Shown here: one piece after another, positions 1 through 55,689 of the stretch
Position numbering within the stretch: position 1 is the stretch's first letter
How the letters are laid out: every line of letters begins with the position of its first letter
Assembly: GCA_964486155.1 (NCBI GenBank)
Contig: CAZAKQ010000003.1
Coordinates: 1-61,022 of the forward strand
DNA length: 61,022 bases
DNA from: an uncultured Candidatus Saccharibacteria bacterium
Lineage (GTDB): Bacteria > Patescibacteriota > Minisyncoccia > Phycocordibacterales > UBA12079
Direction: 5' to 3'
The notes under the pieces: generated by a model
Databases searched by the model: none
What the model was told of the DNA's origin: nothing
Seen by the model: the letters and a program-made list of their open reading frames with translations, nothing else
Position numbers and translations under genes: made by a program

Positions 1-150
1 ATTGTTTCATTAGATTTTTTGCCAGAAAAGTCTAATATGTATGTGAACTTATTCAATCCTATATTTTTATTAGAGGTGTTTGGTATTTTTACTAAACACC
101 TCTTTAAATTTTGTTTTATTATCAAAATAAGAAAAATTTTTTGAGCTGGA

Positions 151-170
151 CCTGTCTGCCGGCAAGTAGG
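151..170. repeat. G+C-rich hairpin, family 2 (degenerate copy), running into a T-loop-like GGTTCGATTCC
   Basis: The sequence is cctgtctgccggcaagtagg. It resembles the CCTGYCTRCCGAYAGGCAGG copies at 9353, 12938, 36325, 44414 and 49908. Confidence 0.5.
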
Positions 171-413
171 TTCGATTCCAAACCACTAAGTAAAATTTTT
201 TGTTCCTAATCTCAAGAATTTGGCCGGGCTGTTTGGTCACAGGTTTTTAAGTAAAGTTTTCGGAATATGCCGGACTGGATTCGGTTTCCAGTTCTAAGTT
301 CAAACTTCATCAAAACTTTTAAAAAAGTTTTGATTTGTTTTCACTAAGAACTCGCAACCCCGCTCACTCAAATTTTTCTTTTGCTATCGCTTCAGAAAAA
401 TATATTCGTTCGT

Positions 414-437
414 TTCGAATCCAGCCCCTGATACGCA
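414..437 (+). repeat. Inverted partial copy of the tRNA-Tyr T-arm and acceptor 3' half
   Basis: ttcgaatccagccc (414-427) is identical to the sense T-loop/T-stem/acceptor start of the minus-strand tRNA-Tyr. It is separated from the tRNA only by the 435-484 hairpin. Confidence 0.6.
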
Positions 438-481
438 CTAAATATAAAAAACAGAGGAAACCCTCTGTTTTTTATATTTAG

Positions 482-7707: not shown

Positions 7708-9249
7708 ATGACCATAAAAAATAAAACAAATTCTTATTCTGAAAAGGGACAAGAACACATAATAGAGCGTTCCCCTGTGATAGTAGTTATGGGTCATATT
7801 GATCATGGAAAATCAACTCTTTTAGATTATATTCGGAAATCTAATATTGTTGAAGGAGAAGCTGGTTCTATCACCCAGCATGTGTCAGCTTACGAGGTAG
7901 TTCATAAAGATTCCAAAGGGGTGGAGAAAAAAATAACTTTTATTGATACTCCTGGGCATGCAGCTTTTTCAGCGATGAGATCTCGTGGCGCTAATATAGC
8001 CGATATTGCAATTTTAATAGTTTCTGCTGAAGATGGGGTTAAACCTCAAACTTTAGAAGCTTATAAAAGTATCCAAGAAGCTAAAATTCCTTTTGTGGTT
8101 GCTATTAATAAAATTGATAAACCTAACGCAAATATAGAAAAAGTAAAATCAGAATTAATTGAAAATGGAATTTATTTAGAAGGTTCTGGAGGAGATATTC
8201 CTTTTGTTCCGATCTCTTCTAAGAATGGAGAAGGAATTCCTGAACTTTTAGATATGATGATTTTAATTACTGAAATGGAAGAATATAAAGGAGACATCTC
8301 TCTGTTAGCTGAAGGAATAATTTTAGAATCTAAAATGGATCCTAAAAAAGGAATTGATACTATGGTAATCATTAAAAATGGAACTTTAAAACAGGGAAAT
8401 TTTATCGTAGTTAATAATAAAATTAGCCCTATTAGAAGAATTGAGGATTTTCAAGGAAATCAAATTAGTGAAGCTATTTTTTCTAGTCCTGCTAGAATAA
8501 TTGGTTGTTGTGATCTTCCTGATGCAGGTTTATCTTTTAAAACCTATGCTACAAAAAAAGAAGCTCAAAATAATTTAGAAGAACATTGTGTTGCATCTGA
8601 TAATGATAAAATTATTTTAAATAATGCTAAAAATTGTAGTGAAGCAGTTGAAATATTTTTGATAATTAAGGCCGATGTTTTTGGCACTATTGAAGCTATA
8701 AAAAAAGAAATAGCTAAAATTAAAACTGATAGAATTATTATTAAAGTTATTTCAGAAGGAGTAGGAGATGTTACAGAAAATGATATAAAAATGGCTCGTC
8801 ATAATTCGAATTCTTTAATTGCAGGTTTTAACGTAAAAATTAATCAAGATATTCTTAATTTAGCTGATCAATCTAATATAAAAGTAGCTTCTTTTAACAT
8901 TATTTATAATCTTACTGAATGGCTGGAAGAAAATATAGAAATTATGATACCTAAAATAGAAGTGGAGAAACAAACAGGAAAAGCTAAGATCTTAGCTATG
9001 TTTAATAAAGATAAGGGAGAGCAGATTTTAGGAGGACAAGTTTTAGAAGGAATGATTAAGTTAAATTCTATTGTAAAAATAATGAGAAGAGATTTTGAAA
9101 TAGGAACAGGAATTATTTCTAATTTACAAAGTCAAAAAATACAAGTAAAAGAAGTTAAAGAAGGTGGAAAATTTGGTATAGGAATAAAATCTAAAATAGA
9201 TATTGCTATTGGAGATAATATTGAAGCTTTTGAAACAGTTACAAAATAA
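7708..9249 (+). CDS. infB: Translation initiation factor IF-2 (short form without the N-terminal extension)
   Basis: It has the G-domain motifs GHIDHGKST, DTPGH and NKID, and IF-2 domain order. I chose the ATG at 7708 over the TTG at 7651. Confidence 0.9.
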   Translation: MTIKNKTNSYSEKGQEHIIERSPVIVVMGHIDHGKSTLLDYIRKSNIVEGEAGSITQHVSAYEVVHKDSKGVEKKITFIDTPGHAAFSAMRSRGANIADIAILIVSAEDGVKPQTLEAYKSIQEAKIPFVVAINKIDKPNANIEKVKSELIENGIYLEGSGGDIPFVPISSKNGEGIPELLDMMILITEMEEYKGDISLLAEGIILESKMDPKKGIDTMVIIKNGTLKQGNFIVVNNKISPIRRIEDFQGNQISEAIFSSPARIIGCCDLPDAGLSFKTYATKKEAQNNLEEHCVASDNDKIILNNAKNCSEAVEIFLIIKADVFGTIEAIKKEIAKIKTDRIIIKVISEGVGDVTENDIKMARHNSNSLIAGFNVKINQDILNLADQSNIKVASFNIIYNLTEWLEENIEIMIPKIEVEKQTGKAKILAMFNKDKGEQILGGQVLEGMIKLNSIVKIMRRDFEIGTGIISNLQSQKIQVKEVKEGGKFGIGIKSKIDIAIGDNIEAFETVTK

Positions 9250-9391: not shown

Positions 9392-9709
9392 ATGACTTTA
9401 AGACAAAATAAAGTAAAAGAAAATATTCGAAATATAATAGCTCAATTTTTGGAAACTGAATCTAATAGAACTTCTATGATCACAGCTACAGATGCTAATG
9501 TTTCTAAAGACTTAAAAAAAGCAACAATCTTTGTTTCTGTTTTGCCTGAATCAGAAGAAGAATCAGCTTTAAATTTTTTGAAAAGGAAACGAAGTGATGC
9601 TAGAAATTATCTTCGAAATAGATTAGATATGAGGACTATTCCCTTCTTAGATTTTGAATTAGATTATGGAGAAAAAAATCGCCAAAGAATTGACGAACTA
9701 TCCCAATAA
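9392..9709 (+). CDS. rbfA: Ribosome-binding factor A
   Basis: The ORF is 105 aa and sits directly after infB, the conserved infB-rbfA order. It has an RbfA-like KH-fold sequence (ATIFVSVL...). Confidence 0.85.
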   Translation: MTLRQNKVKENIRNIIAQFLETESNRTSMITATDANVSKDLKKATIFVSVLPESEEESALNFLKRKRSDARNYLRNRLDMRTIPFLDFELDYGEKNRQRIDELSQ

Positions 9710-9736
9710 TCGTAGAATATAAAAAACCATAACAAT

Positions 9737-9809
9737 GGCCATGTGGTGAAGTAGTTAACACGACGGTCTGCAAAACCGTTATGCGTGGGTGCAAATCCCA
9801 CCATGGCCT
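9737..9809 (+). tRNA. tRNA-Cys(GCA)
   Basis: The sequence reads GGCCATG..ACGGT-CTGCAAA-ACCGT..GTGGG-TGCAAAT-CCCAC-CATGGCC-T. The discriminator is U73. No CCA is encoded. Confidence 0.9.
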
Positions 9810-9834
9810 CAAGAATTTTCGCCAGAAAATATCT

Positions 9835-9973
9835 CTGGTAGGATTTGCACGGAACTTTTTCGCCGTAGGATTAAGAAAAAGTCTGAGGTTTTGGGGGAAG
9901 TTTGTGAGTATATCGTGAATACTTGGAACGATACGAACAAACTGGAGGAAAAAAATTCCCACCATGGCCTCAA
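9835..9973 (+). ncRNA. tRNA-Cys-linked shadow unit (inverted 3'-half copy ... direct copy of the tRNA 3' end)
   Basis: ctggtaggatttgcacgg (9835-9852) is a degenerate reverse complement of the tRNA-Cys T-arm and acceptor. tcccaccatggcctcaa (9957-9973) exactly repeats 9796-9812. The two ends can pair (TGGTAGGA with TCCCACCA). Confidence 0.4.
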
Positions 9974-10024
9974 AAAAGTTGAGTATTTTGAAAAATAGTA
10001 TAAAATAAGAAAAATGCCTGGGTG

Positions 10025-10106
10025 GTGGAATTGGTATACACGCAGCACTTAAAATGCTGTCTCTTCGGGGATGCGGGTTCGACTCCCGCCCCAGGCACAA
10101 AAAAGA
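10025..10106 (+). tRNA. tRNA-Leu(TAA), class II
   Basis: The sequence reads GCCTGGG..CAGCA-CTTAAAA-TGCTG..long variable arm..GCGGG-TTCGACT-CCCGC-CCCAGGC-A. Confidence 0.9.
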
Positions 10107-10154
10107 AAACATTAATTATTTAAATTAAGGTTTTTCTTTTTGTTTCCTGCAGGA

Positions 10155-10177
10155 CGGGAGTCGAACGGTGATAGAAA
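10155..10177 (+). repeat. Inverted partial copy of the tRNA-Leu T-arm and acceptor
   Basis: cctgcaggacgggagtcgaacgg contains cgggagtcgaac, the reverse complement of the tRNA-Leu T-arm. It is separated from the tRNA by the 10107-10151 hairpin. Confidence 0.55.
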
Positions 10178-10193
10178 AACTATAAAAAAGTCC

Positions 10194-10266
10194 TCCGTCC
10201 ATAGCTCAGACGGTAGAGCAGCAGCCTCTTAAGCTGACGGTCGCAGGTTCGATCCCTGCTGGGCGG
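10194..10266 (+). tRNA. tRNA-Lys(CTT)
   Basis: The sequence reads CCGTCCA-TA-GCTC..GAGC..CTCTTAA loop..GCAGG-TTCGATC-CCTGC-TGGGCGG-A. The C1-G72 pair is unusual. Confidence 0.8.
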
Positions 10267-10284
10267 ACAATTAAAAATAAAAAT

Positions 10285-10317
10285 AAAACGGGTCACTAGT
10301 GACCCGTTTTATTTTTT
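10285..10317 (+). terminator. Intrinsic terminator after the tRNA cluster
   Basis: aaaacgggtcactagtgacccgtttt is followed by a T-run. Confidence 0.8.
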
Positions 10318-16578: not shown

Positions 16579-16910
16579 GGGGTCATTATTGTGACGGCAA
16601 GCAGATTCGCATTCAGAAAAATTACCTTTGTGTTCGTTACACCAAGTTTTGTTAGTATACTCACATTCTTTTTCTTCGTTTAACCAATTAGCTTCGGTGG
16701 CTTCACAGGCTCCTGCGATTGTGTTAATAACATTTAAATCATTTTCTTGTTTGGGTTTTAAACCATAATTATAAACAAAGAAAATAATTAAAATTATAAT
16801 TGCTATATATTCAGTTTTTTCATTATAAATTTTTTTAATTAATAAAATAATTATAGATTATAACATATTAAAGAGTTTTATTTTTATATTTTTAATATAT
16901 AATAATTTTA

Positions 16911-17084
16911 TATGAAGCGAGCATATAATTACATCGTTCGGATTATATAAAAACATATTATTACATAATCGTTTTTATAAATCCTCACTTGAAATTATAT
17001 GAAGCGAGCATATAATTACATCGTTCGGATTATATAAAAACATATTATTACATAATCGTTTTTATAAATCCTCACTTGAAATTA
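16911..17084. repeat. Perfect 2 x 87-bp tandem duplication ending at the start codon of the VanY-like gene
   Basis: The unit tatgaagcgagcatataattacatcgttcggattatataaaaacatattattacataatcgtttttataaatcctcacttgaaatta occurs at 16911-16997 and 16998-17084. A related copy lies at 47906-47968. Confidence 0.9.
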
Positions 17085-22336: not shown

Positions 22337-22427
22337 GAAGTCCAACCCCAATATTAATAGAACAACATTCAACAACTAAAGTTCACGGTTATTTTAGTTA
22401 ATCCGCCAGCTGGCGGAGTTGGACTTC
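22337..22427 (-). ncRNA. ~90-nt 3'-flank structured element, copy 2 (downstream of rnc)
   Basis: The closing stem is gaagtccaac (22337-22346) with gttggacttc (22418-22427). Relative to copy 1, both strands have changed so that pairing is kept. It has the same core cacggttattttagttaatccgccagctggcggag. Confidence 0.5.
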
Positions 22428-22455
22428 GTTCAATAACTTAAGAAAAATATGAAAA

Positions 22456-22487
22456 GGGCGAAGGACTAAAGTCCTTCGCCTTTTTTT
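22456..22487. terminator. Bidirectional intrinsic terminator downstream of rnc
   Basis: The stem gggcgaaggac-taaa-gtccttcgcc is flanked by a T7 run on the plus strand and a T-run on the minus strand. Confidence 0.75.
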
Positions 22488-22491
22488 CTAA

Positions 22492-22507
22492 TCCGCCAGC
22501 TGGCGGA
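22492..22507. repeat. 16-nt G+C palindrome TCCGCCAGCTGGCGGA (family 1)
   Basis: This is a perfect copy, 28 nt beyond the rnc stop. Confidence 0.8.
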
Positions 22508-28444: not shown

Positions 28445-28496
28445 ATTCAAAACCAACGAACTTCATCGTCAGTCTTGGAAAAATGTTTGAACTTTT

Positions 28497-28586
28497 GAGG
28501 TCCGACTCCGCCAGCTGGCGGATTAACTAAAATAACCGTAATCTTTAGCTAATTGTTCTATCTTATCAATGCCGAAGTCGTACCTC
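28497..28586 (+). ncRNA. ~90-nt 3'-flank structured element, copy 3 (downstream of dnaE)
   Basis: The closing stem is gaggtccgac (28497-28506) with gtcgtacctc (28577-28586), followed by T7. It has the same core, including tccgccagctggcgga (28507-28522). It is co-oriented with dnaE. Confidence 0.5.
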
Positions 28587-28656
28587 TTTTTTTAAAACTC
28601 AAAATATTTCCCCTCACTTCCTCGAACTTCTTCTGATTTTATAGTTATTTAAAACT

Positions 28657-30168: not shown

Positions 30169-30197
30169 TTTTTCATTATACCATGTTCAAAAAATTT

Positions 30198-30226
30198 CAA
30201 CACCTCAAGTCGTTGAGGTGTTCAGC
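30198..30226. repeat. Hairpin caacacctcaag-tc-gttgaggtgtt(cagc), copy 1
   Basis: Its first 30 nt are identical to 31420-31449, and the homologous flank extends to about 48 nt. It lies just beyond the stop of the STAS-like gene. Confidence 0.8.
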
Positions 30227-30241
30227 TCCTTTATAGCTATG

Positions 30242-30544
30242 TTAAGCAAAAATATTATCTAACTTAATATTTGAAACTGGTTCTTTTTTAATTGCCATAG
30301 ACCGAGCTACAATTTCAAACATTTTTGAAATATCTTCGTTTGTGTTTTCAAATATTAAATATTTATTTTTCTTAACTTTATATTCTTCTTTTAATTTTAA
30401 AAATTCATGAGCAGCAGATCTAGAAATAAAGTCAACGTTAGAAAAATCTAAAACAACAGAATTGTCTTTTGCTTTTTCTATCTCTTTTTGATAATCTCTT
30501 ATCAAATCACGAGAACTTAAGATTTTTCTTTTTATTTTTATCAT
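30242..30544 (-). CDS. STAS-like (DUF4325-type) small protein
   Basis: The ORF is 100 aa. It has VVLDFSNVDFISRSAAHEFLKL, typical of STAS-like DUF4325. It is paired with the upstream GHKL ATPase. Confidence 0.55.
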   Translation of the reverse strand: MIKIKRKILSSRDLIRDYQKEIEKAKDNSVVLDFSNVDFISRSAAHEFLKLKEEYKVKKNKYLIFENTNEDISKMFEIVARSMAIKKEPVSNIKLDNIFA

Positions 30545-31387: not shown

Positions 31388-31419
31388 TAATAAAATTATA
31401 TCATATTTTAAAAAACTAC

Positions 31420-31448
31420 CAACACCTCAAGTCGTTGAGGTGTTCAGC
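31420..31448. repeat. Hairpin caacacctcaag-tc-gttgaggtgtt(cagc), copy 2
   Basis: It is a direct repeat of 30198-30226. It lies just beyond the stop of the wHTH gene. Confidence 0.8.
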
Positions 31449-31458
31449 TTTTTGATGG

Positions 31459-31764
31459 CTATATTACTTGATAATACACAGATTGACCAACTGTGCCGAT
31501 TTGTTTAATTTTTCCTTCTTTTTCTAACTGATCAAGATATCTTTCTGCAGTTGCGTTAGATACATTACATAGTTCTTCTATATCATTATTCGTTATCTTT
31601 TCGTTATCGTTTAAAAATTCTAGAATTTTAGATTTATTTTCAATTTTGGCTTCTGCTTGTTTTGAAAGAATATTTTTCTTTCCTCTTCCTCCTTTTTGCA
31701 TACTAAAATAACTTCCAATAATAATTCCTGCTATTCCTATTATAATTAAAATTGTGTAGTTCAT
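31459..31764 (-). CDS. Membrane-anchored winged-helix DNA-binding protein
   Basis: The ORF is 101 aa with an N-terminal TM helix. It has a wHTH segment ITNNDIEELCNVSNATAERYLDQLEKEGKI. Confidence 0.55.
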   Translation of the reverse strand: MNYTILIIIGIAGIIIGSYFSMQKGGRGKKNILSKQAEAKIENKSKILEFLNDNEKITNNDIEELCNVSNATAERYLDQLEKEGKIKQIGTVGQSVYYQVI

Positions 31765-31825: not shown

Positions 31826-31900
31826 GGCCCTATCGTCTAATGGTTAGGACGCAAGCTTCTCAAGCTTGTAATCCGGGTTCGACTCCCGGTAGGGTCACCA
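31826..31900 (+). tRNA. tRNA-Glu(CTC), CCA encoded
   Basis: The sequence reads GGCCCTA..CAAGC-TTCTCAA-GCTTG..CCGGG-TTCGACT-CCCGG-TAGGGTC-A-CCA. Confidence 0.92.
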
Positions 31901-31999
31901 AATCCTGTTTTTCTATATATTTATCCGTCTTGACACAAAAAACCAAAGCATGTTTCGGTTTTTTGTGTTTTTGGGGTAAAATTAAAGATATAAATAAAC

Positions 32000-32905
32000 A
32001 TGCAAAAATATAATTTTATAAAAAAAGATATTATTGATAATTTATCCCATCAAAAAAATCCACCTTTTAAACTTGTTGAAATATGTCATGATATCAATAC
32101 TAATTATTTAAAAAATAGATATCAAGTAGTGATAGTATTTATCAGAGCTGTATTAGATTACATCCCTCCAATTTTTGGATATAAAACAACTTCTCAAGTA
32201 TATAGTAATTTAAAAAAATATAAATCATTCAAAAAAGCTCTAGAAGGAGTAGATAAATCTACAAGAAATCTTGCTGATGATATATTACACAATCAAGCAA
32301 CTATTAATGAAATAATAAAAGTTGATAAACCCTCTTGTGATTTTGTTAGAGATAATTTAACTCTTATTCTTACCTCTGTTATAAATCAATTAGAAAAAAA
32401 AGATTTACGAACTACTTCTCTAAATCGATTAGAAAAAAAATATGAAAAACCTAAATCTCAAATCCAATTATTTGAAAAATATATAAAAAATATAAGAAAC
32501 TGGAAAAAAGAATTTATAAACAGCAAAGAAGTTTGGATTTATTCAAAAGATAATTTATACCAAATTCATCAACAAGATGATATTAAAGATTTTTCAGAGC
32601 CTTGGACTCAAGTTTGGTTCAATTCAAAAGGTTCTGGTAAATATTATATAGATTTAAAATATAATGGTAGCATCATAAAACAATTTCCAATGATTTATTT
32701 TGATGGGGGAAGAGAAAATATAATTATGCCAAAAATGGAAACTTCTTCAAAAACTAATTTCTGGGAAAATAAAGATATTTATGGAGGTCATTATAAAAAT
32801 GTTGCTTACTATATAATTAAAGATAGTATAGAGTACAACCTATCAAAACTTTTAGGTTCAAATATTGAAAAGATAATTAAAAAGTCTAATATTGAGATAA
32901 GATAA
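32000..32905 (+). CDS. Hypothetical protein (orphan, between tRNA-Glu and the tRNA-Glu-like repeats)
   Basis: The ORF is 301 aa and Lys/Asn-rich. I recognise no family. Confidence 0.5.
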   Translation: MQKYNFIKKDIIDNLSHQKNPPFKLVEICHDINTNYLKNRYQVVIVFIRAVLDYIPPIFGYKTTSQVYSNLKKYKSFKKALEGVDKSTRNLADDILHNQATINEIIKVDKPSCDFVRDNLTLILTSVINQLEKKDLRTTSLNRLEKKYEKPKSQIQLFEKYIKNIRNWKKEFINSKEVWIYSKDNLYQIHQQDDIKDFSEPWTQVWFNSKGSGKYYIDLKYNGSIIKQFPMIYFDGGRENIIMPKMETSSKTNFWENKDIYGGHYKNVAYYIIKDSIEYNLSKLLGSNIEKIIKKSNIEIR

Positions 32906-33156
32906 TTTATATAAATAAAACAAAAAACTACCGTCTAGTAACGGTTTCTATTTCTGATAAAATTAGCAAAAATAGGTAGAGGGGTTTGTTTTAGTATGAT
33001 AGATAAGCTATATACAAACTTTTTGCTAATTTTTTATAATTAATATTATTTGGAATTTTCTTTTTTAATTCAGTATAACAAGAATACTTGAGCCAAGGAT
33101 TTTTTTTCGAACAATAACGCTGAAATATTAGGTCTCTTTCATTCTGTGGTTCTAAA

Positions 33157-33185
33157 GTTCGAGAGTTGTCCCGATAGGGTTCACA
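33157..33185 (+). repeat. Degenerate tRNA-Glu 3'-end copy (unit U0) followed by a terminator hairpin
   Basis: gttcgagagttgtcccgatagggttcaca compares with the tRNA's gttcgactcccggtagggtcacca. It is followed by aaaaaactcagtcttttgactgggtttttt. Confidence 0.5.
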
Positions 33186-33224
33186 AATTTAAAAAACTCA
33201 GTCTTTTGACTGGGTTTTTTAAAT

Positions 33225-33367
33225 TCTAGTGAATCCCCTGTGTGGGATAGTCGAAAGTCAGAAGAAAATTCGAGATTTTCTGAGACGGGGTCGAGAACAC
33301 TTTGTAAAATTTGAGTTTACGAAAAATTTTACTTAGTGATTCGTGACCGACTCCCGGTAGGGTCACA
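33225..33367 (+). ncRNA. tRNA-Glu-like structured unit U1
   Basis: It ends in cgactcccggtagggtcac, a 19-nt exact match to tRNA-Glu 31880-31898. It contains two AT hairpins set in G+C-rich junction helices. A 21-bp perfect hairpin follows at 33364-33409. Confidence 0.4.
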
Positions 33368-33409
33368 AATCGCCAAAGAGCAAATAGTTTTGCTCTTTGG
33401 CGATTTGTG

Positions 33410-33525
33410 AAGGCGGAGGCCTATTTTTACGACCTATTAGAGAGTAAAAAAGCTGAGCCGAGGTCACGAACACTTAGATATTTTAAGTCCGTAAGGACGA
33501 AAAAAATATTTAGTGATTCGGGACA
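33410..33525 (+). ncRNA. tRNA-Glu-like structured unit U2 (lacks the acceptor-like 3' end)
   Basis: It has the same module order as U1 and U3: ...ggaggc, AT hairpin, ctgagccgaggtcacgaacac, AT hairpin, gtgattcgggac. Confidence 0.35.
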
Positions 33526-33606
33526 CAAGTAAACTCAGTATGCAAAGCACTCAATTAACTCAACTAAAGAATCAAAGCGAATGCTTTGATTTTTTATATT
33601 TTGGTA

Positions 33607-33770
33607 GACCCTACTGGGAGCCGAAAGACGGAGGCTGCGAAGCCATATTTTTCAGAAAGAAAAATATGCAGTCGAGTCCGGGCAGGAGCCACTTGATAAA
33701 ATATAAGTGAACTTGTGAACGAAATATTTTATCTTAGTGAGCTGACGCCGAATCTTCCGGTAGGGTCACA
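33607..33770 (+). ncRNA. tRNA-Glu-like structured unit U3 with a complete acceptor-type closing stem
   Basis: 5' GACCCTAC (33607-33614) pairs perfectly with 3' GTAGGGTC (33760-33767), followed by ACA. The interior holds two AT hairpins and G+C junction helices homologous to U1 and U2. Confidence 0.45.
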
Positions 33771-33869
33771 AAAACTCAAATATCTTTACTTTTTAAACTT
33801 TTTAGTTTATATTTTTTGTAGAAGAAGTAACAGTTAATTTAAACTTCAAACCCAAAAAGGAGCCCTTTT

Positions 33870-47765: not shown

Positions 47766-47815
47766 ACAAAGGTTTGAAGAACAAGTGAATAAGATTATAA
47801 TTCTGATTCACTTGT

Positions 47816-48039
47816 TTTTATTATCGACGTAGTGCGAGAGTAATAGAAAAATGTAGCAAAGCGAAATTTTTCTATTGCCGAGCCGAGGAGTTAATATAAG
47901 GAAACCATATAATTCCTACGTTCGGATTATATGAAAATAAATTTTCACAAATCCTCACTTGAAATTATAAGACGAAGTGCTTTTATTATCGACGTAGTGC
48001 GAGAGTAATAGAAAAATGTAGCAAAGCGAAATTTTTCTA
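47816..48039. repeat. Nested repeat block: two 59-bp direct repeats flanking a copy of the 87-bp-family element
   Basis: ttttattatcgacgtagtgcgagagtaatagaaaaatgtagcaaagcgaaatttttcta occurs at 47816-47874 and 47981-48039. Between them, 47906-47968 is related to the 16911 unit (catataatt..cgttcggattatat...aaatcctcacttgaaattat). Confidence 0.85.
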
Positions 48040-54260: not shown

Positions 54261-54480
54261 ATTTGTGCTGAGGGGCACTCGTCCTGACGATCTCTAAATA
54301 AAATTCTTCGCTATCGCTTAAATTTTATTAAGAGTCGCGGGACACGGCTCACTATCGTTCCGTTTCCTTCGCTTCGCTACGGAATACTCACGATATGCTC
54401 CGCCGTTCGAGCCCGCACGAAAGCCAAACAATTGGCTTTCTCTCTCAACAAAAATTAAAATTCCCGATTTGGGAATTTAA
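54261..54480 (-). ncRNA. tRNA-Phe-linked shadow unit
   Basis: In minus sense it starts just after the tRNA-Phe trailer hairpins. It contains gtgcgggctcgaacggcgg, an inverted T-arm copy whose plus-strand form gttcgagcccgc lies at 54405-54416. It ends in gtgcccctcagcacaaat, which repeats the tRNA 3' end (16-nt identity between 54261-54276 and 54481-54496). Confidence 0.4.
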
Positions 54481-54485
54481 ATTTG

Positions 54486-54558
54486 TGCTGAGGGGCGGGC
54501 TCGAACCGCCGACCCTTCGCTCTTCAGGCGAATGCTCTACCAACTGAGCTACCTCAGC
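54486..54558 (-). tRNA. tRNA-Phe(GAA)
   Basis: The reverse complement reads GCTGAGG-TA-GCTCAGTTGGTAGAGC..TTCGC-CTGAAGA-GCGAA..GGCGG-TTCGAGC-CCGCC-CCTCAGC-A. Confidence 0.92.
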
Positions 54559-54707
54559 ATATTTTATTTTCGATTATACTACCTTATTAATATATATCAA
54601 TATTTTCCGCATTCTGCGAATGCTTTTTCCTATCACCTCGTAAACATCGGTGATTTTCTCACTATCGTTCGAAATCGGATAAAAAACAAAGCAGTTTGTT
54701 TTTTCTT

Positions 54708-54730
54708 CAACTGAGCTACCTCAGCATATT
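54708..54730 (-). repeat. Duplicate of the tRNA-Phe 5' end plus 5 nt of leader (23-nt identity)
   Basis: caactgagctacctcagcatatt at 54708-54730 equals 54541-54563. Confidence 0.85.
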
Positions 54731-55126: not shown

Positions 55127-55687
55127 TTAAACTTGTTTATGCCTAAAACATCTAACTTCATGATCATTTACCATTCCAATGGCTTGCATATAAGCATATA
55201 TAATCGTCGGGCCAACAAAGTTCATTCCTCTCTTTTTTAGATCTTTAGAAATTTTTTCTGAATCTTTAGTTTGAGTTGGAATTTCTGAAATTTTAGTAAA
55301 TTTATTATTTATCGGTTTTCCGTTCACGAAACCCCAAATATATTTATCAAAGCTTTCAAATTCTTTTTGAATTTCTAAAAATATTTTTGCATTTTGAACA
55401 ATTGAATTTATTTTTAAATTATTTCTGATAATTCCTTCATTTTTTAATAATTTTTCTATTTTGGTTTTTGTATATTGAGATATTTTTTTAGGATTAAAAT
55501 TATCAAAAACTTTTCTGTAATTACTTCTTTTATTTAAAATAATTTCCCACGAAAGTCCTGCCTGAGCTCCTTCTAAAATAAGCATTTCAAAGAGTTTTCT
55601 GTCATTATGAAGAGGCACACCCCATTCTTCATCGTGATATTTTTTATATATTTTGTTTTTAGGATTTACCCAAGCACATCTTTTCAT
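55127..55687 (-). CDS. tag: DNA-3-methyladenine glycosylase I
   Basis: The ORF is 186 aa. It has CAW....YHDEEWGVP, LEGAQAGLSW and a C-terminal ...NDH...C zinc-snap motif. Confidence 0.9.
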   Translation of the reverse strand: MKRCAWVNPKNKIYKKYHDEEWGVPLHNDRKLFEMLILEGAQAGLSWEIILNKRSNYRKVFDNFNPKKISQYTKTKIEKLLKNEGIIRNNLKINSIVQNAKIFLEIQKEFESFDKYIWGFVNGKPINNKFTKISEIPTQTKDSEKISKDLKKRGMNFVGPTIIYAYMQAIGMVNDHEVRCFRHKQV

Positions 55688-55689
55688 AG

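Follow-up and report, generated by a model that had tools for sequence, protein, structure and literature searches.

What are the pieces of tRNA sequence that reappear, as direct and as inverted copies, behind the tRNA-Cys and tRNA-Leu genes of contig CAZAKQ010000003.1? The stretch of DNA analysed here (positions 1 to 61,022 of that contig, 61,022 nucleotides (nt); referred to as the window) stems from a low-GC member of the Patescibacteria, or candidate phyla radiation (CPR), and its closest relatives among public genomes are metagenome-assembled genomes (MAGs) of Paceibacterota/Patescibacteria. The repeats had been pointed out in an earlier note made from the letters alone. That finding is real and broader than described there. 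With a probability of roughly 55%, we consider the Cys and Leu features to be members of an undescribed family of non-autonomous cassettes which dock at tRNA 3' ends in Paceibacteria and contain a folded core. Literature searches returned no description of such cassettes; insertions targeted to tRNAs are known as such, but this class of element among them appears to be new.

Related genomes and loci are designated by L-numbers; they were gathered by scans with IF-2, which gave few close relatives, and with RbfA, which was more productive. The layout of the window is the same in ten independent assemblies of the same species, which rules out an assembly artefact, and the same-species contigs L160–L169 show no polymorphism at the Cys and Leu loci.

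In tRNA sense, a unit consists of a trailer hairpin (T), an inverted copy of the tRNA 3' part (S'), a core of ~100 nt and a direct copy of the tRNA 3' end (S), and the cassette measures 130–190 nt. Core types are labelled A to E, labels given in this analysis. The unit behind tRNA-Cys is of type D and its surroundings read as follows:

9690–9718, plus strand: sigma-70-like promoter TTGACG-17-TAGAAT before tRNA-Cys; no other promoter-like site precedes the Cys unit
9737–9809 (end 9809/10), plus strand: tRNA-Cys (GCA) with the unusual T-loop TGCAAAT; CCA is not encoded
9796–9812, plus strand: first copy of S (T-loop end, T-stem 3' strand, acceptor 3' strand, discriminator and CAA of tRNA-Cys)
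9813–9832, plus strand: T, a small AT-rich hairpin attttc-gcca-gaaaat with no terminator score
9833–9850, plus strand: S', the inverted T-loop, T-stem 3' strand and acceptor start of tRNA-Cys (15/18)
9851–9884, plus strand: P2 hairpin of the type-D core, with compensatory changes in L174 (one pair) and L080 (two adjacent pairs)
9885–9898, plus strand: G-rich strand GAGGTTTTGGGGGA, partner of S in the conserved type-D fold
9899–9943, plus strand: P3 hairpin of the type-D core, with compensatory changes in relatives
9957–9973, plus strand: second copy of S, an exact 17-nt direct repeat of the tRNA-Cys 3' end and right boundary of the cassette
9979–10006, plus strand: tRNA-Leu promoter-like site TTGAGT-16-TAAAAT, which lies directly behind tRNA-Cys in the empty site of L180

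The 17-nt repeat TCCCACCATGGCCTCAA occurs exactly twice in 61 kb, at 9796–9812 and 9957–9973 as had been reported (chance expectation 0.01; two matches in none of 100 shuffled sequences), and the small hairpin described behind the tRNA is present at 9813–9832. The claimed inverted copy was likewise found: the minus strand of 9833–9850 reads GTGCAAATCCTACCAGAG and agrees with T-loop, T-stem and acceptor at 15 of 18 positions, where 0.01 such matches are expected by chance. Since this S' contains the complement of the unusual T-loop TGCAAAT, it was copied from tRNA-Cys. The further proposal that inverted and direct copies pair to close a unit of ~140 nt is weak for the Cys unit. S' pairs better with the T-arm of the tRNA itself than with the downstream copy, and both the single-sequence fold and a three-genome consensus pair S (9957–9973) with the internal G-rich segment 9885–9898. 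In these predicted structures, closure by S' and S is neither the favoured nor the conserved fold.

Type-D orthologues are located behind tRNA-Cys in L002/L177 and in L174, and a further copy behind tRNA-Leu in L080 has arms matching tRNA-Leu. The type-D consensus from three genomes comprises P2 (9851–9884), P3 (9899–9943) and the helix between 9885–9898 and 9957–9973, with compensatory change at seven pairs; L080 contributes the double compensatory change in P2. In P3, gtttgt/acaaac is replaced by ctttct/agaaag in L002 and L174, and tatcgt/acgata by tattgt/a[ct]aata. Between the window and L002/L174 the type-D core is 83–87% identical, tRNA-Cys 77%, and S' and the downstream spacer ~50% each. 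Hence, the core is constrained and S' is decaying, and the Cys unit is best read as a complete but decaying copy.

At the Leu locus the features described earlier exist, and their coordinates had been given 9 nt too high. tRNA-Leu was placed at 10025–10106 and the inverted copy cctgcaggacgggagtcgaacgg at 10155–10177; the correct positions are 10016–10097 and 10146–10168. The 12-nt core cgggagtcgaac is, as stated, an exact reverse complement of the tRNA-Leu T-arm. The corrected arrangement is:

10016–10097, plus strand: tRNA-Leu (TAA)
10098–10145, plus strand: AT-rich trailer hairpin of tRNA-Leu; a homologous hairpin is found in L172, which has no unit there
10146–10165, plus strand: S' of the Leu remnant (inverted acceptor 3' strand, T-stem 3' strand and T-loop) with the exact 12-nt core
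10166–10194, plus strand: first ~29 nt of a type-E core (cggtgatagaaaaac...), ending where tRNA-Lys starts
10195–10267, plus strand: tRNA-Lys (CTT), abutting the Leu remnant, with a strong terminator next (10279–10316)

The tRNA-Leu 3' end, its trailer hairpin and the inverted copy form a single long palindrome that rivals the cloverleaf in a single-sequence fold. The start of the remaining core, cggtgatagaaaaac, resembles the type-E core start CGGTGATAGGAAAAG of L003, L172 and L180. No Leu remnant is present in L001, L002 or L172. The Leu element is a truncated remnant, made up of the palindrome and ~29 nt of core, and no full unit.

These two loci belong to a larger family of ~35 homologous units across the window and at least 15 related genomes. 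A same-strand tRNA gene lies directly upstream of 34 of the 35 tabulated units, the exception being at the end of a locus, and first units start 13–75 nt from their tRNA. Eight tRNA species carry units (Trp, Lys, Leu(taa), Leu(tag), Glu, Cys, Tyr and Phe), and S and S' both match the particular adjacent tRNA. The other members in the window are:

268–440, minus strand: type-A unit 3' of tRNA-Tyr (481–564), with S' at 414–440 and S at 268–284
33155–33775, plus strand: array behind tRNA-Glu, with units U1 (33238–33368), U2 (33403–33528) and U3 (33608–33771)
33155–33187, plus strand: degenerate 3'-end copy opening the tRNA-Glu array
54262–54430, minus strand: type-B unit 3' of tRNA-Phe (54485–54558)

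The resemblance noted earlier between the Cys and Phe units reflects true homology, as seen from nhmmer cross-hits between types, from alignments and from a covariance model. All fifteen units collected first align with each other, and nhmmer searches with each unit match other types. Their consensus is ...GGAnTCGAA-(A/C)G-GNC-GGAG-[hairpin]-GAG-N'C-GG-GGTCGCG-[hairpin]-TGTGAC-CGAnTCC... The covariance model R1, built from ten units and run over 1.7 Mb of related loci, returned ~30 significant copies in 15 genomes; within the 61-kb window it matched tRNA-linked copies only. Type D is the most divergent type: R1 matches the L174 copy (E = 7e-4) and misses the window copy. The family extends to the Kaiserbacteria MAG L016 and to L096, whose unit has 67% GC.

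The anatomy of the units follows the tRNA closely. The T hairpin often scores as an intrinsic terminator. S' is the reverse complement of the T-loop and the T-stem 3' strand and always ends in ...TCGAA (...TGCA for tRNA-Cys), the complement of T54/T55. Many units also have, in front of S', the complement of the acceptor 3' strand, which is contiguous with S' in the Trp unit of L001 (19/19) and split from it by a conserved GAGAAAG...CTTTC hairpin in Lys, Tyr and Phe units; a different hairpin occupies this position in the Leu (L016) and Cys (L096) units. S comprises the tRNA from about C56 in the T-loop to 2–3 nt past the discriminator. The outline of a unit is tRNA-like, with an acceptor stem, one arm, a T-stem and the core in place of the T-loop. 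For tRNA-Trp, tRNA-Lys and tRNA-Glu, whose acceptor stem has a G.U pair, S' complements the 3' strand by Watson-Crick pairs throughout; therefore it is an inverted copy of that strand, and an origin as a copy of the tRNA 5' strand is excluded. A primer-binding site of the retroviral type was also excluded, because S' contains no CCA complement and often lacks the acceptor part. A plain palindrome grown from a terminator would fit the window Tyr and Leu loci and the Trp unit of L001, but it fails for the Trp units of L172 and L180, where S' lies apart from the hairpin palindrome. Inverted copies, whose conservation in relatives had been left for checking, are a conserved feature.

The trailer ACAAA that had been noticed behind several tRNAs and units can be traced to two circumstances: S reaches 2–3 nt past the discriminator, and every window tRNA inspected ends in N73-C-N-A. 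In all seven genes inspected (3' ends at 9809–9812, 10097–10100, 10267–10270, 31897–31900, 54482–54485, 480–483 and 55686–55689) the discriminator is followed by C-N-A (CAA, CCA or CTA) instead of CCA or a U-rich trailer. This may reflect a particular route of 3'-end maturation.

What does the core encode? In a model-based alignment of 31 units it is a three-way junction on the tRNA-sense strand, with the S':S helix as P1. This closing helix forms in most other family members, in contrast to the Cys unit. P2 contains a 3-bp GNC/GN'C helix beside a GGAG/GA purine loop, and P3 a conserved G.U pair. Across the 31 units, pairing cells amount to 85.7%, compared with 70.4% in shuffles and 26–45% with slid partners; two-sided changes are found in 84 cells where 27 are expected; and the covariation score of 0.389 (against 0.157) was reached by none of 500 shuffles. 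The middle pair of the GNC helix is GC in 15, AU in 5, UA in 3 and CG in 2 sequences. P3 shows UA/CG exchange at its base and retains its G.U pair in 19 of 31 sequences. In 13 of 13 units tested the sense fold is 4–15 kcal/mol more stable than the antisense fold. Hence, the fold belongs to the sense strand, most simply as RNA, and on these models the core most likely encodes a structured RNA. The description as a "deletion remnant" or a simple attachment (att) scar is inadequate for a covarying, strand-specific fold that is more conserved than tRNA-Cys.

No Rfam 15 family matches the units at gathering or permissive thresholds, and the Leu palindrome (10075–10168) gave only far sub-threshold matches resembling miRNA precursors. 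ARAGORN and Rfam detect nine true tRNAs only; 9811–9975 and 10098–10194 are without a tRNA match at E <= 10. A degenerate inverted tRNA as core is excluded, as the tRNA model gives no match. For hammerhead and other self-cleaving ribozymes there is no Rfam match either, and the junction strands (AAA, GG and none, by inspection) do not fit the CUGANGA...GAAA...UH core. A kink-turn is excluded by the bulge of the GGAG/GA loop, which is 1 nt and not 3 nt. In type B, GAGCCGTGT resembles group II intron domain V, but the matching hairpin is missing.

The units turn over among relatives. At tRNA-Cys, the att-like behaviour of the repeats for which a check had been proposed is seen in L180, where the site is empty: tRNA-Cys is directly followed by ...aggttgagtattttgacaaatagtataaaata, the tRNA-Leu promoter flank that stands behind the second 17-mer in the window. 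Compact Cys–Leu spacers of 21–70 nt are present in the distant relatives L004, L005, L009 and L082. The Cys site contains type D in the window, L002 and L174 (where type E follows), a C-like unit in L172 and type E in L003. It is free of units in L001, L180, L004 and L082, and L001 holds only a free-standing HNH endonuclease gene there. Many tRNAs have no unit, and close relatives differ in whether a given tRNA carries units, in how many and of which type. One core type can be found behind different tRNAs in different genomes, with arms fitting the local tRNA.

A filled and an empty allele were also identified at tRNA-Trp, in L184 and L186, which encode identical RbfA. Behind tRNA-Trp, L186 reads ...GACCCGCA and then AATGAATACT; at the point between them L184 holds 160 nt, consisting of T, S', core and a copy of S with two mismatches. 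Ahead of the tRNA-Trp 3' end (8626) both genomes are identical over 600 nt or more; behind it they are ~10% different (by eye). Therefore, the difference was probably imported by homologous recombination, and the tRNA end/unit at 8626 marks the breakpoint. Local amplification is visible behind tRNA-Trp in L172, with two perfect 192-nt tandem units, and behind tRNA-Lys in L093, with an 80-nt perfect repeat around the unit. A target duplication of the whole S-T-S' block would fit the L093 repeat, but it conflicts with L184/L186, where T and S' arrive with the unit.

An integrase-bearing element between the repeats, which according to the earlier note would have made the Cys unit a deletion remnant, was found in none of the relatives examined; occupied sites hold only units of 130–190 nt. 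Pfam searches with ~50 window open reading frames (ORFs) revealed no integrase, transposase, reverse-transcriptase or HUH domain. Precomputed Pfam families of the genes in 28 related loci (loci, not whole genomes) and extra ORFs contained no recombinase, transposase or reverse transcriptase. For ORFs inside arrays, PHROGs and Pfam returned only HNH endonucleases and a weak DUF5680 below the Pfam cut-off. In the phage, plasmid and IMG/VR collections there was no true match to the units, nor did four unit patterns scanned over viral contigs give one; the single pattern match, L188, is a chance match in coding DNA. The Cys–Leu spacers of L001 (8146–8629), L002 (8257–8784) and L184 (6500–6982) contain a free-standing HNH endonuclease gene (PHROG HNH endonuclease, E = 1e-43; Pfam HNH) which is independent of the units and not present in the window. 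Its product may serve the tRNA cluster as a homing endonuclease or be the nuclease that promotes rearrangements there.

How could such cassettes move? Their junctions fall in the T-loop box, a sequence common to all tRNAs, and core types change places while their arms match locally, which suggests that recombination or copy-choice at the T-loop, in both orientations, transplants cores. We propose that cassettes dock at tRNA 3' ends in this way, using the near-universal T-loop sequence together with the tRNA 3' end. The duplicated 3' end would be the docking scar and could serve as the next docking site, so that arrays grow, and recombination between S copies would duplicate and remove units. 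An enzyme may act in trans, or host recombination and replication may suffice. Transcripts that read through from the tRNA promoter would most likely deliver the core as RNA. The S':S helix, presumably a mimic of the acceptor/T-stem stack, may set the ends of this RNA for enzymes that process tRNA or double-stranded RNA.

Several observations weigh against this proposal. The sole filled/empty pair coincides with a recombination breakpoint and so represents an allele replacement, not a de novo insertion. Neither an enzyme nor an excised form nor a fresh copy between loci was seen. The types within a genome are old, diverged paralogues and there is no burst of near-identical copies; their coexistence speaks for long-term retention of the core, either because it is useful to the host or because it is an efficient parasite, and not a recent burst of miniature inverted-repeat transposable elements (MITEs). 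No sigma-70-type promoter is predicted before any unit and several units lie behind terminator-like hairpins; consequently, any expression would hinge on read-through from the tRNA promoter. The fold could also act in single-stranded DNA instead of RNA. In the Cys unit, S' decays and has no role in the conserved fold. Finally, the proposal does not account for the rewriting of S' to fit a new tRNA, especially where a conserved hairpin splits it.

The units could instead be host genes for small RNAs that are not mobile, that is, tRNA-like RNAs cut from the tRNA transcript, with S':S as a processing stem or tRNA mimic recognized by RNase P, RNase Z or RNase III, perhaps followed by CCA tailing. 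Their only source of copies would be local duplications and template switches beside tRNA genes. The coexistence of several diverged types (A–E) in one genome and their persistence across genera would be expected of such genes, as would a sense-specific, covarying fold that is better conserved than tRNA-Cys. The window encodes RNase III, and in S' the strands that resemble the 5' sides of acceptor and T-stem follow each other as in a tRNA; some units have a hairpin at the place where the tRNA body would branch. In well-preserved units the paired ends imitate the acceptor/T-stem stack, over 17–19 bp in the Trp unit of L001 and by way of a split S' in units at Lys, Tyr, Phe, Leu and Cys; the window Cys unit shows no such imitation, and the T-loop is lost in all units. 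Plant mitochondrial t-elements, mascRNA, the tRNA-like domain of tmRNA and YrlA Y RNAs are comparable: they are tRNA-adjacent, their 5' and 3' ends pair, and the 3' strand is a genuine acceptor/T-stem 3' strand with discriminator. In contrast to them, the cassettes replace the T-loop by a 100-nt core, match no Rfam family and have arms that fit whichever tRNA is adjacent. The occupancy differences among close relatives, the many tRNAs without a unit, the non-conserved association between core type and tRNA, and the frequency of decaying or truncated copies (Cys S', Leu remnant) are not what one expects of host genes, nor is the lack of a predicted promoter together with terminator-like hairpins before some units. 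We therefore regard immobile host genes as a rather unlikely explanation.

Another idea goes beyond docking: the cassettes could be programmable RNA elements homing to tRNA genes, with S' as a guide pairing with the T-arm/acceptor 3' strand of the tRNA gene or transcript. A trans-acting enzyme would copy the element behind the chosen tRNA and thereby duplicate its 3' end (S). This enzyme could be a reverse transcriptase, a recombinase or an HNH nickase of the sort encoded in the tRNA cluster of relatives. This would resemble tRNA-gene-targeted retroelements of the short interspersed element (SINE) kind or guide-RNA-directed recombination. It fits with the tRNA-Lys unit of L093, whose S' CGTCAGGACTCGAA equals the S' of the tRNA-Trp unit of L184 and is perfect to tRNA-Trp, while its S is pure tRNA-Lys, and with the tested cassette boundaries, which on either side fall at the point of tRNA 3' processing. 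With retron msr-msd RNAs and the guide-carrying RNAs of mobile elements (exon-binding sites of group II introns, IS110 bridge RNA) the cassettes share closure by terminal inverted repeats, two internal stem-loops and an internal segment complementary to the neighbour of the insertion site. However, no reverse transcriptase, intron domain or IS110 recombinase is found near the cassettes, and without a reverse transcriptase nearby they are not retron RNAs. In the cassettes, moreover, the complementary segment (11–20 nt) derives from the tRNA, and a direct copy goes with it. Guided homing is a speculative and unlikely option.

Could the units be scars of ordinary integrase islands, either attL/attR of elements deleted down to ~150 nt or attP-only satellites that use a distant integrase? 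Direct repeats from the T-loop to just past the tRNA 3' end are the classical att anatomy at tRNAs. Empty sites and tandem arrays exist, the unit supplies a tRNA 3' end and a hairpin as an integrating element must, and behind tRNA-Glu a 1.3-kb insert with a 301-aa ORF is bounded by a degenerate 3'-end copy. Integrative elements at tRNAs (islands, cis-mobilizable elements (CIMEs), tycheposon-type arrays) share with the cassettes the tRNA 3' direct repeats, the start in the T-loop, tandem accretion and empty sites. The cassettes differ in being gene-free and only 130–190 nt long, in having no integrase at the loci examined, and in combining a covarying strand-specific fold with an inverted copy of the tRNA 3' part. 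So repeats and an empty site are there, but neither a recombinase gene nor fold-neutral leftover DNA. No integrase was seen in the window or in ~15 related loci examined, no relative has a larger element between the repeats, and there is no phage, plasmid or IMG/VR match. A conserved, covarying fold with a G.U pair would be unexpected for protein-binding attP arms. Moreover, in L184/L186 it is the distal repeat, not the tRNA-proximal one, that departs from the empty allele, the reverse of a simple attL/attR crossover in the T-loop. An origin as integrase scars is accordingly doubtful and, in our estimate, improbable.

The same grade applies to hairpin elements acting in single-stranded DNA, comparable to attC sites, CTX phage or repetitive extragenic palindromes (REPs) of the HUH kind and IS200-type elements, in which the S-T-S' palindrome would rebuild the double-stranded end of a tRNA gene for a recombinase or nuclease. 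Long palindromes do have the trailer hairpin at their centre, at Tyr and Leu in the window and at Trp in L001, and GCGAAGC- and C-GNNA-G-type loops recur in hairpins of units and trailers; such loops are very stable as DNA hairpins. Arrays of units resemble cassette arrays, and free-standing HNH endonuclease genes occur in the same tRNA cluster in three relatives. Integron arrays (attC) have further traits in common with the units: small modules in array, imperfect palindromes ending in a short box, swaps of modules, and, in parts of the element, folding that matters over sequence. In contrast to integrons, the cassettes have no IntI, attI or R''/L''-L'/R' consensus, their arms are local tRNA copies, and they carry a non-coding fold instead of an ORF. 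The motif RYYYAAC...GTTRRRY is absent, as is an attC-type R''/R' consensus; the boxes of the cassettes are the T-loop sequences GGAnTCGAA / CGAnTCC, and GTTCGAA of the T-loop departs from GTTRRRY. None of the nearby genes is of the IntI, HUH or Xer type, and S' in many units is no continuation of the hairpin palindrome. The orientation of units tracks the tRNA gene on both strands of one 61-kb stretch, which points to transcription or target orientation and not to the replication strand.

MITEs and REPs, including bacterial interspersed mosaic elements (BIMEs), are, like the cassettes, short, non-coding, hairpin-rich, intergenic and non-autonomous, with inverted ends that can pair. The cassettes differ from them in their arms, which are specific to each tRNA and repeat 17–20 nt or more of it, in their strict location at tRNA 3' ends in tRNA orientation, and in their copies, which are old diverged types. 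Since the ends vary with the target, the cassettes are neither MITEs nor REPs. That the repeats have no function at all, being by-products of template switching at terminator hairpins near highly transcribed tRNA genes plus chance resemblance, is very improbable: extended palindromes taking in trailer sequence and partial tRNA duplications on the 5' side as well (window Phe, L001 Lys) would fit, but the repeats are far beyond chance, and the covariation of the core across genera and from 38 to 67% GC together with its conservation above that of the tRNA largely refutes the idea.

Returning to docking cassettes, their nearest functional analogy is a tRNA-like processing element fused to a passenger RNA, and their nearest genetic analogy an att-flanked satellite. 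If the proposal is correct, reduced CPR genomes host widespread, unrecognised, gene-free elements that use tRNA 3' ends as docking sites and encode a conserved folded nucleic acid with ends rewritten for each tRNA. It would then have to be asked how an element of 150 nt gains both a copy and an inverted copy of its target, whether tRNA-processing enzymes are co-opted to excise passenger RNAs in bacteria, and whether guide-like pairing with the tRNA gene provides targeting. In practical terms, these repeats account for breaks in assemblies and for false ORF calls where tRNAs cluster in Patescibacteria MAGs, and covariance model R1 provides a marker for strain-level variation. The 158-aa antisense ORF at 9636–10112 (minus strand), which covers the end of rbfA, tRNA-Cys, the unit and tRNA-Leu and is called as a gene in some public assemblies of the same species (e.g. 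L161, 5245–5721), is almost certainly spurious.

The window as a whole is ordinary chromosome with genes for IF-2, RbfA, ClpB, DnaE, ArgRS, LepA, RNase III and similar housekeeping proteins. The 1.3-kb insert behind tRNA-Glu (31898–33187) contains a 301-aa ORF (32000–32905) without a Pfam or PHROG match. Its borders are the tRNA on one side and a degenerate copy of that tRNA's T-arm/3' end (33155–33187) on the other, and it has the look of an insertion that brought a gene to the same docking site. At tRNA-Phe, the first ~18 nt of the gene and 4 nt of leader are duplicated 167 nt upstream (54541–54562 and 54708–54729, minus strand), so tRNA 5' ends are duplicated too; the interval contains a hairpin and the core-like fragments ccgatttcgaacgatagtgag and ggtgataggaaaaag. 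Partial tRNA-Lys copies up- and downstream of the real gene were found in L001 (8752–8808 and 8969–9058), L002 (8986–9065) and L174 (6960–7010). In them a hairpin replaces the region of the D-stem 3' and anticodon-stem 5' strands; its stem covaries and its loop GAGATTCGCAA is conserved between L001 and L002, and the L174 copy has a different loop. These copies are a different kind of tRNA-linked element from the cassettes.

Other hairpin-rich intergenic repeats in the window are located at 700–795, 22375–22428, 22465–22507, 28493–28588, 16907–17081, 47813–48039, 30183–30244 and 31405–31466. Among them are an 87-nt perfect tandem and a ~96-nt element in which GAAGTCCGAC/GTCGGACTTC enclose CCGCCAGCTGGCGG, and these families show neither tRNA linkage nor a match to the unit model. 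A short palindrome of the type CTGCCTGCCGGTAGGCAGG recurs in tRNA flanks of the window (145–190), L003 (8255–8280 and 10105–10125) and L080 (2350–2375), and a form of it is also located inside the P3 loop of a unit in L174 (6690–6715). It may represent another small insertion element.

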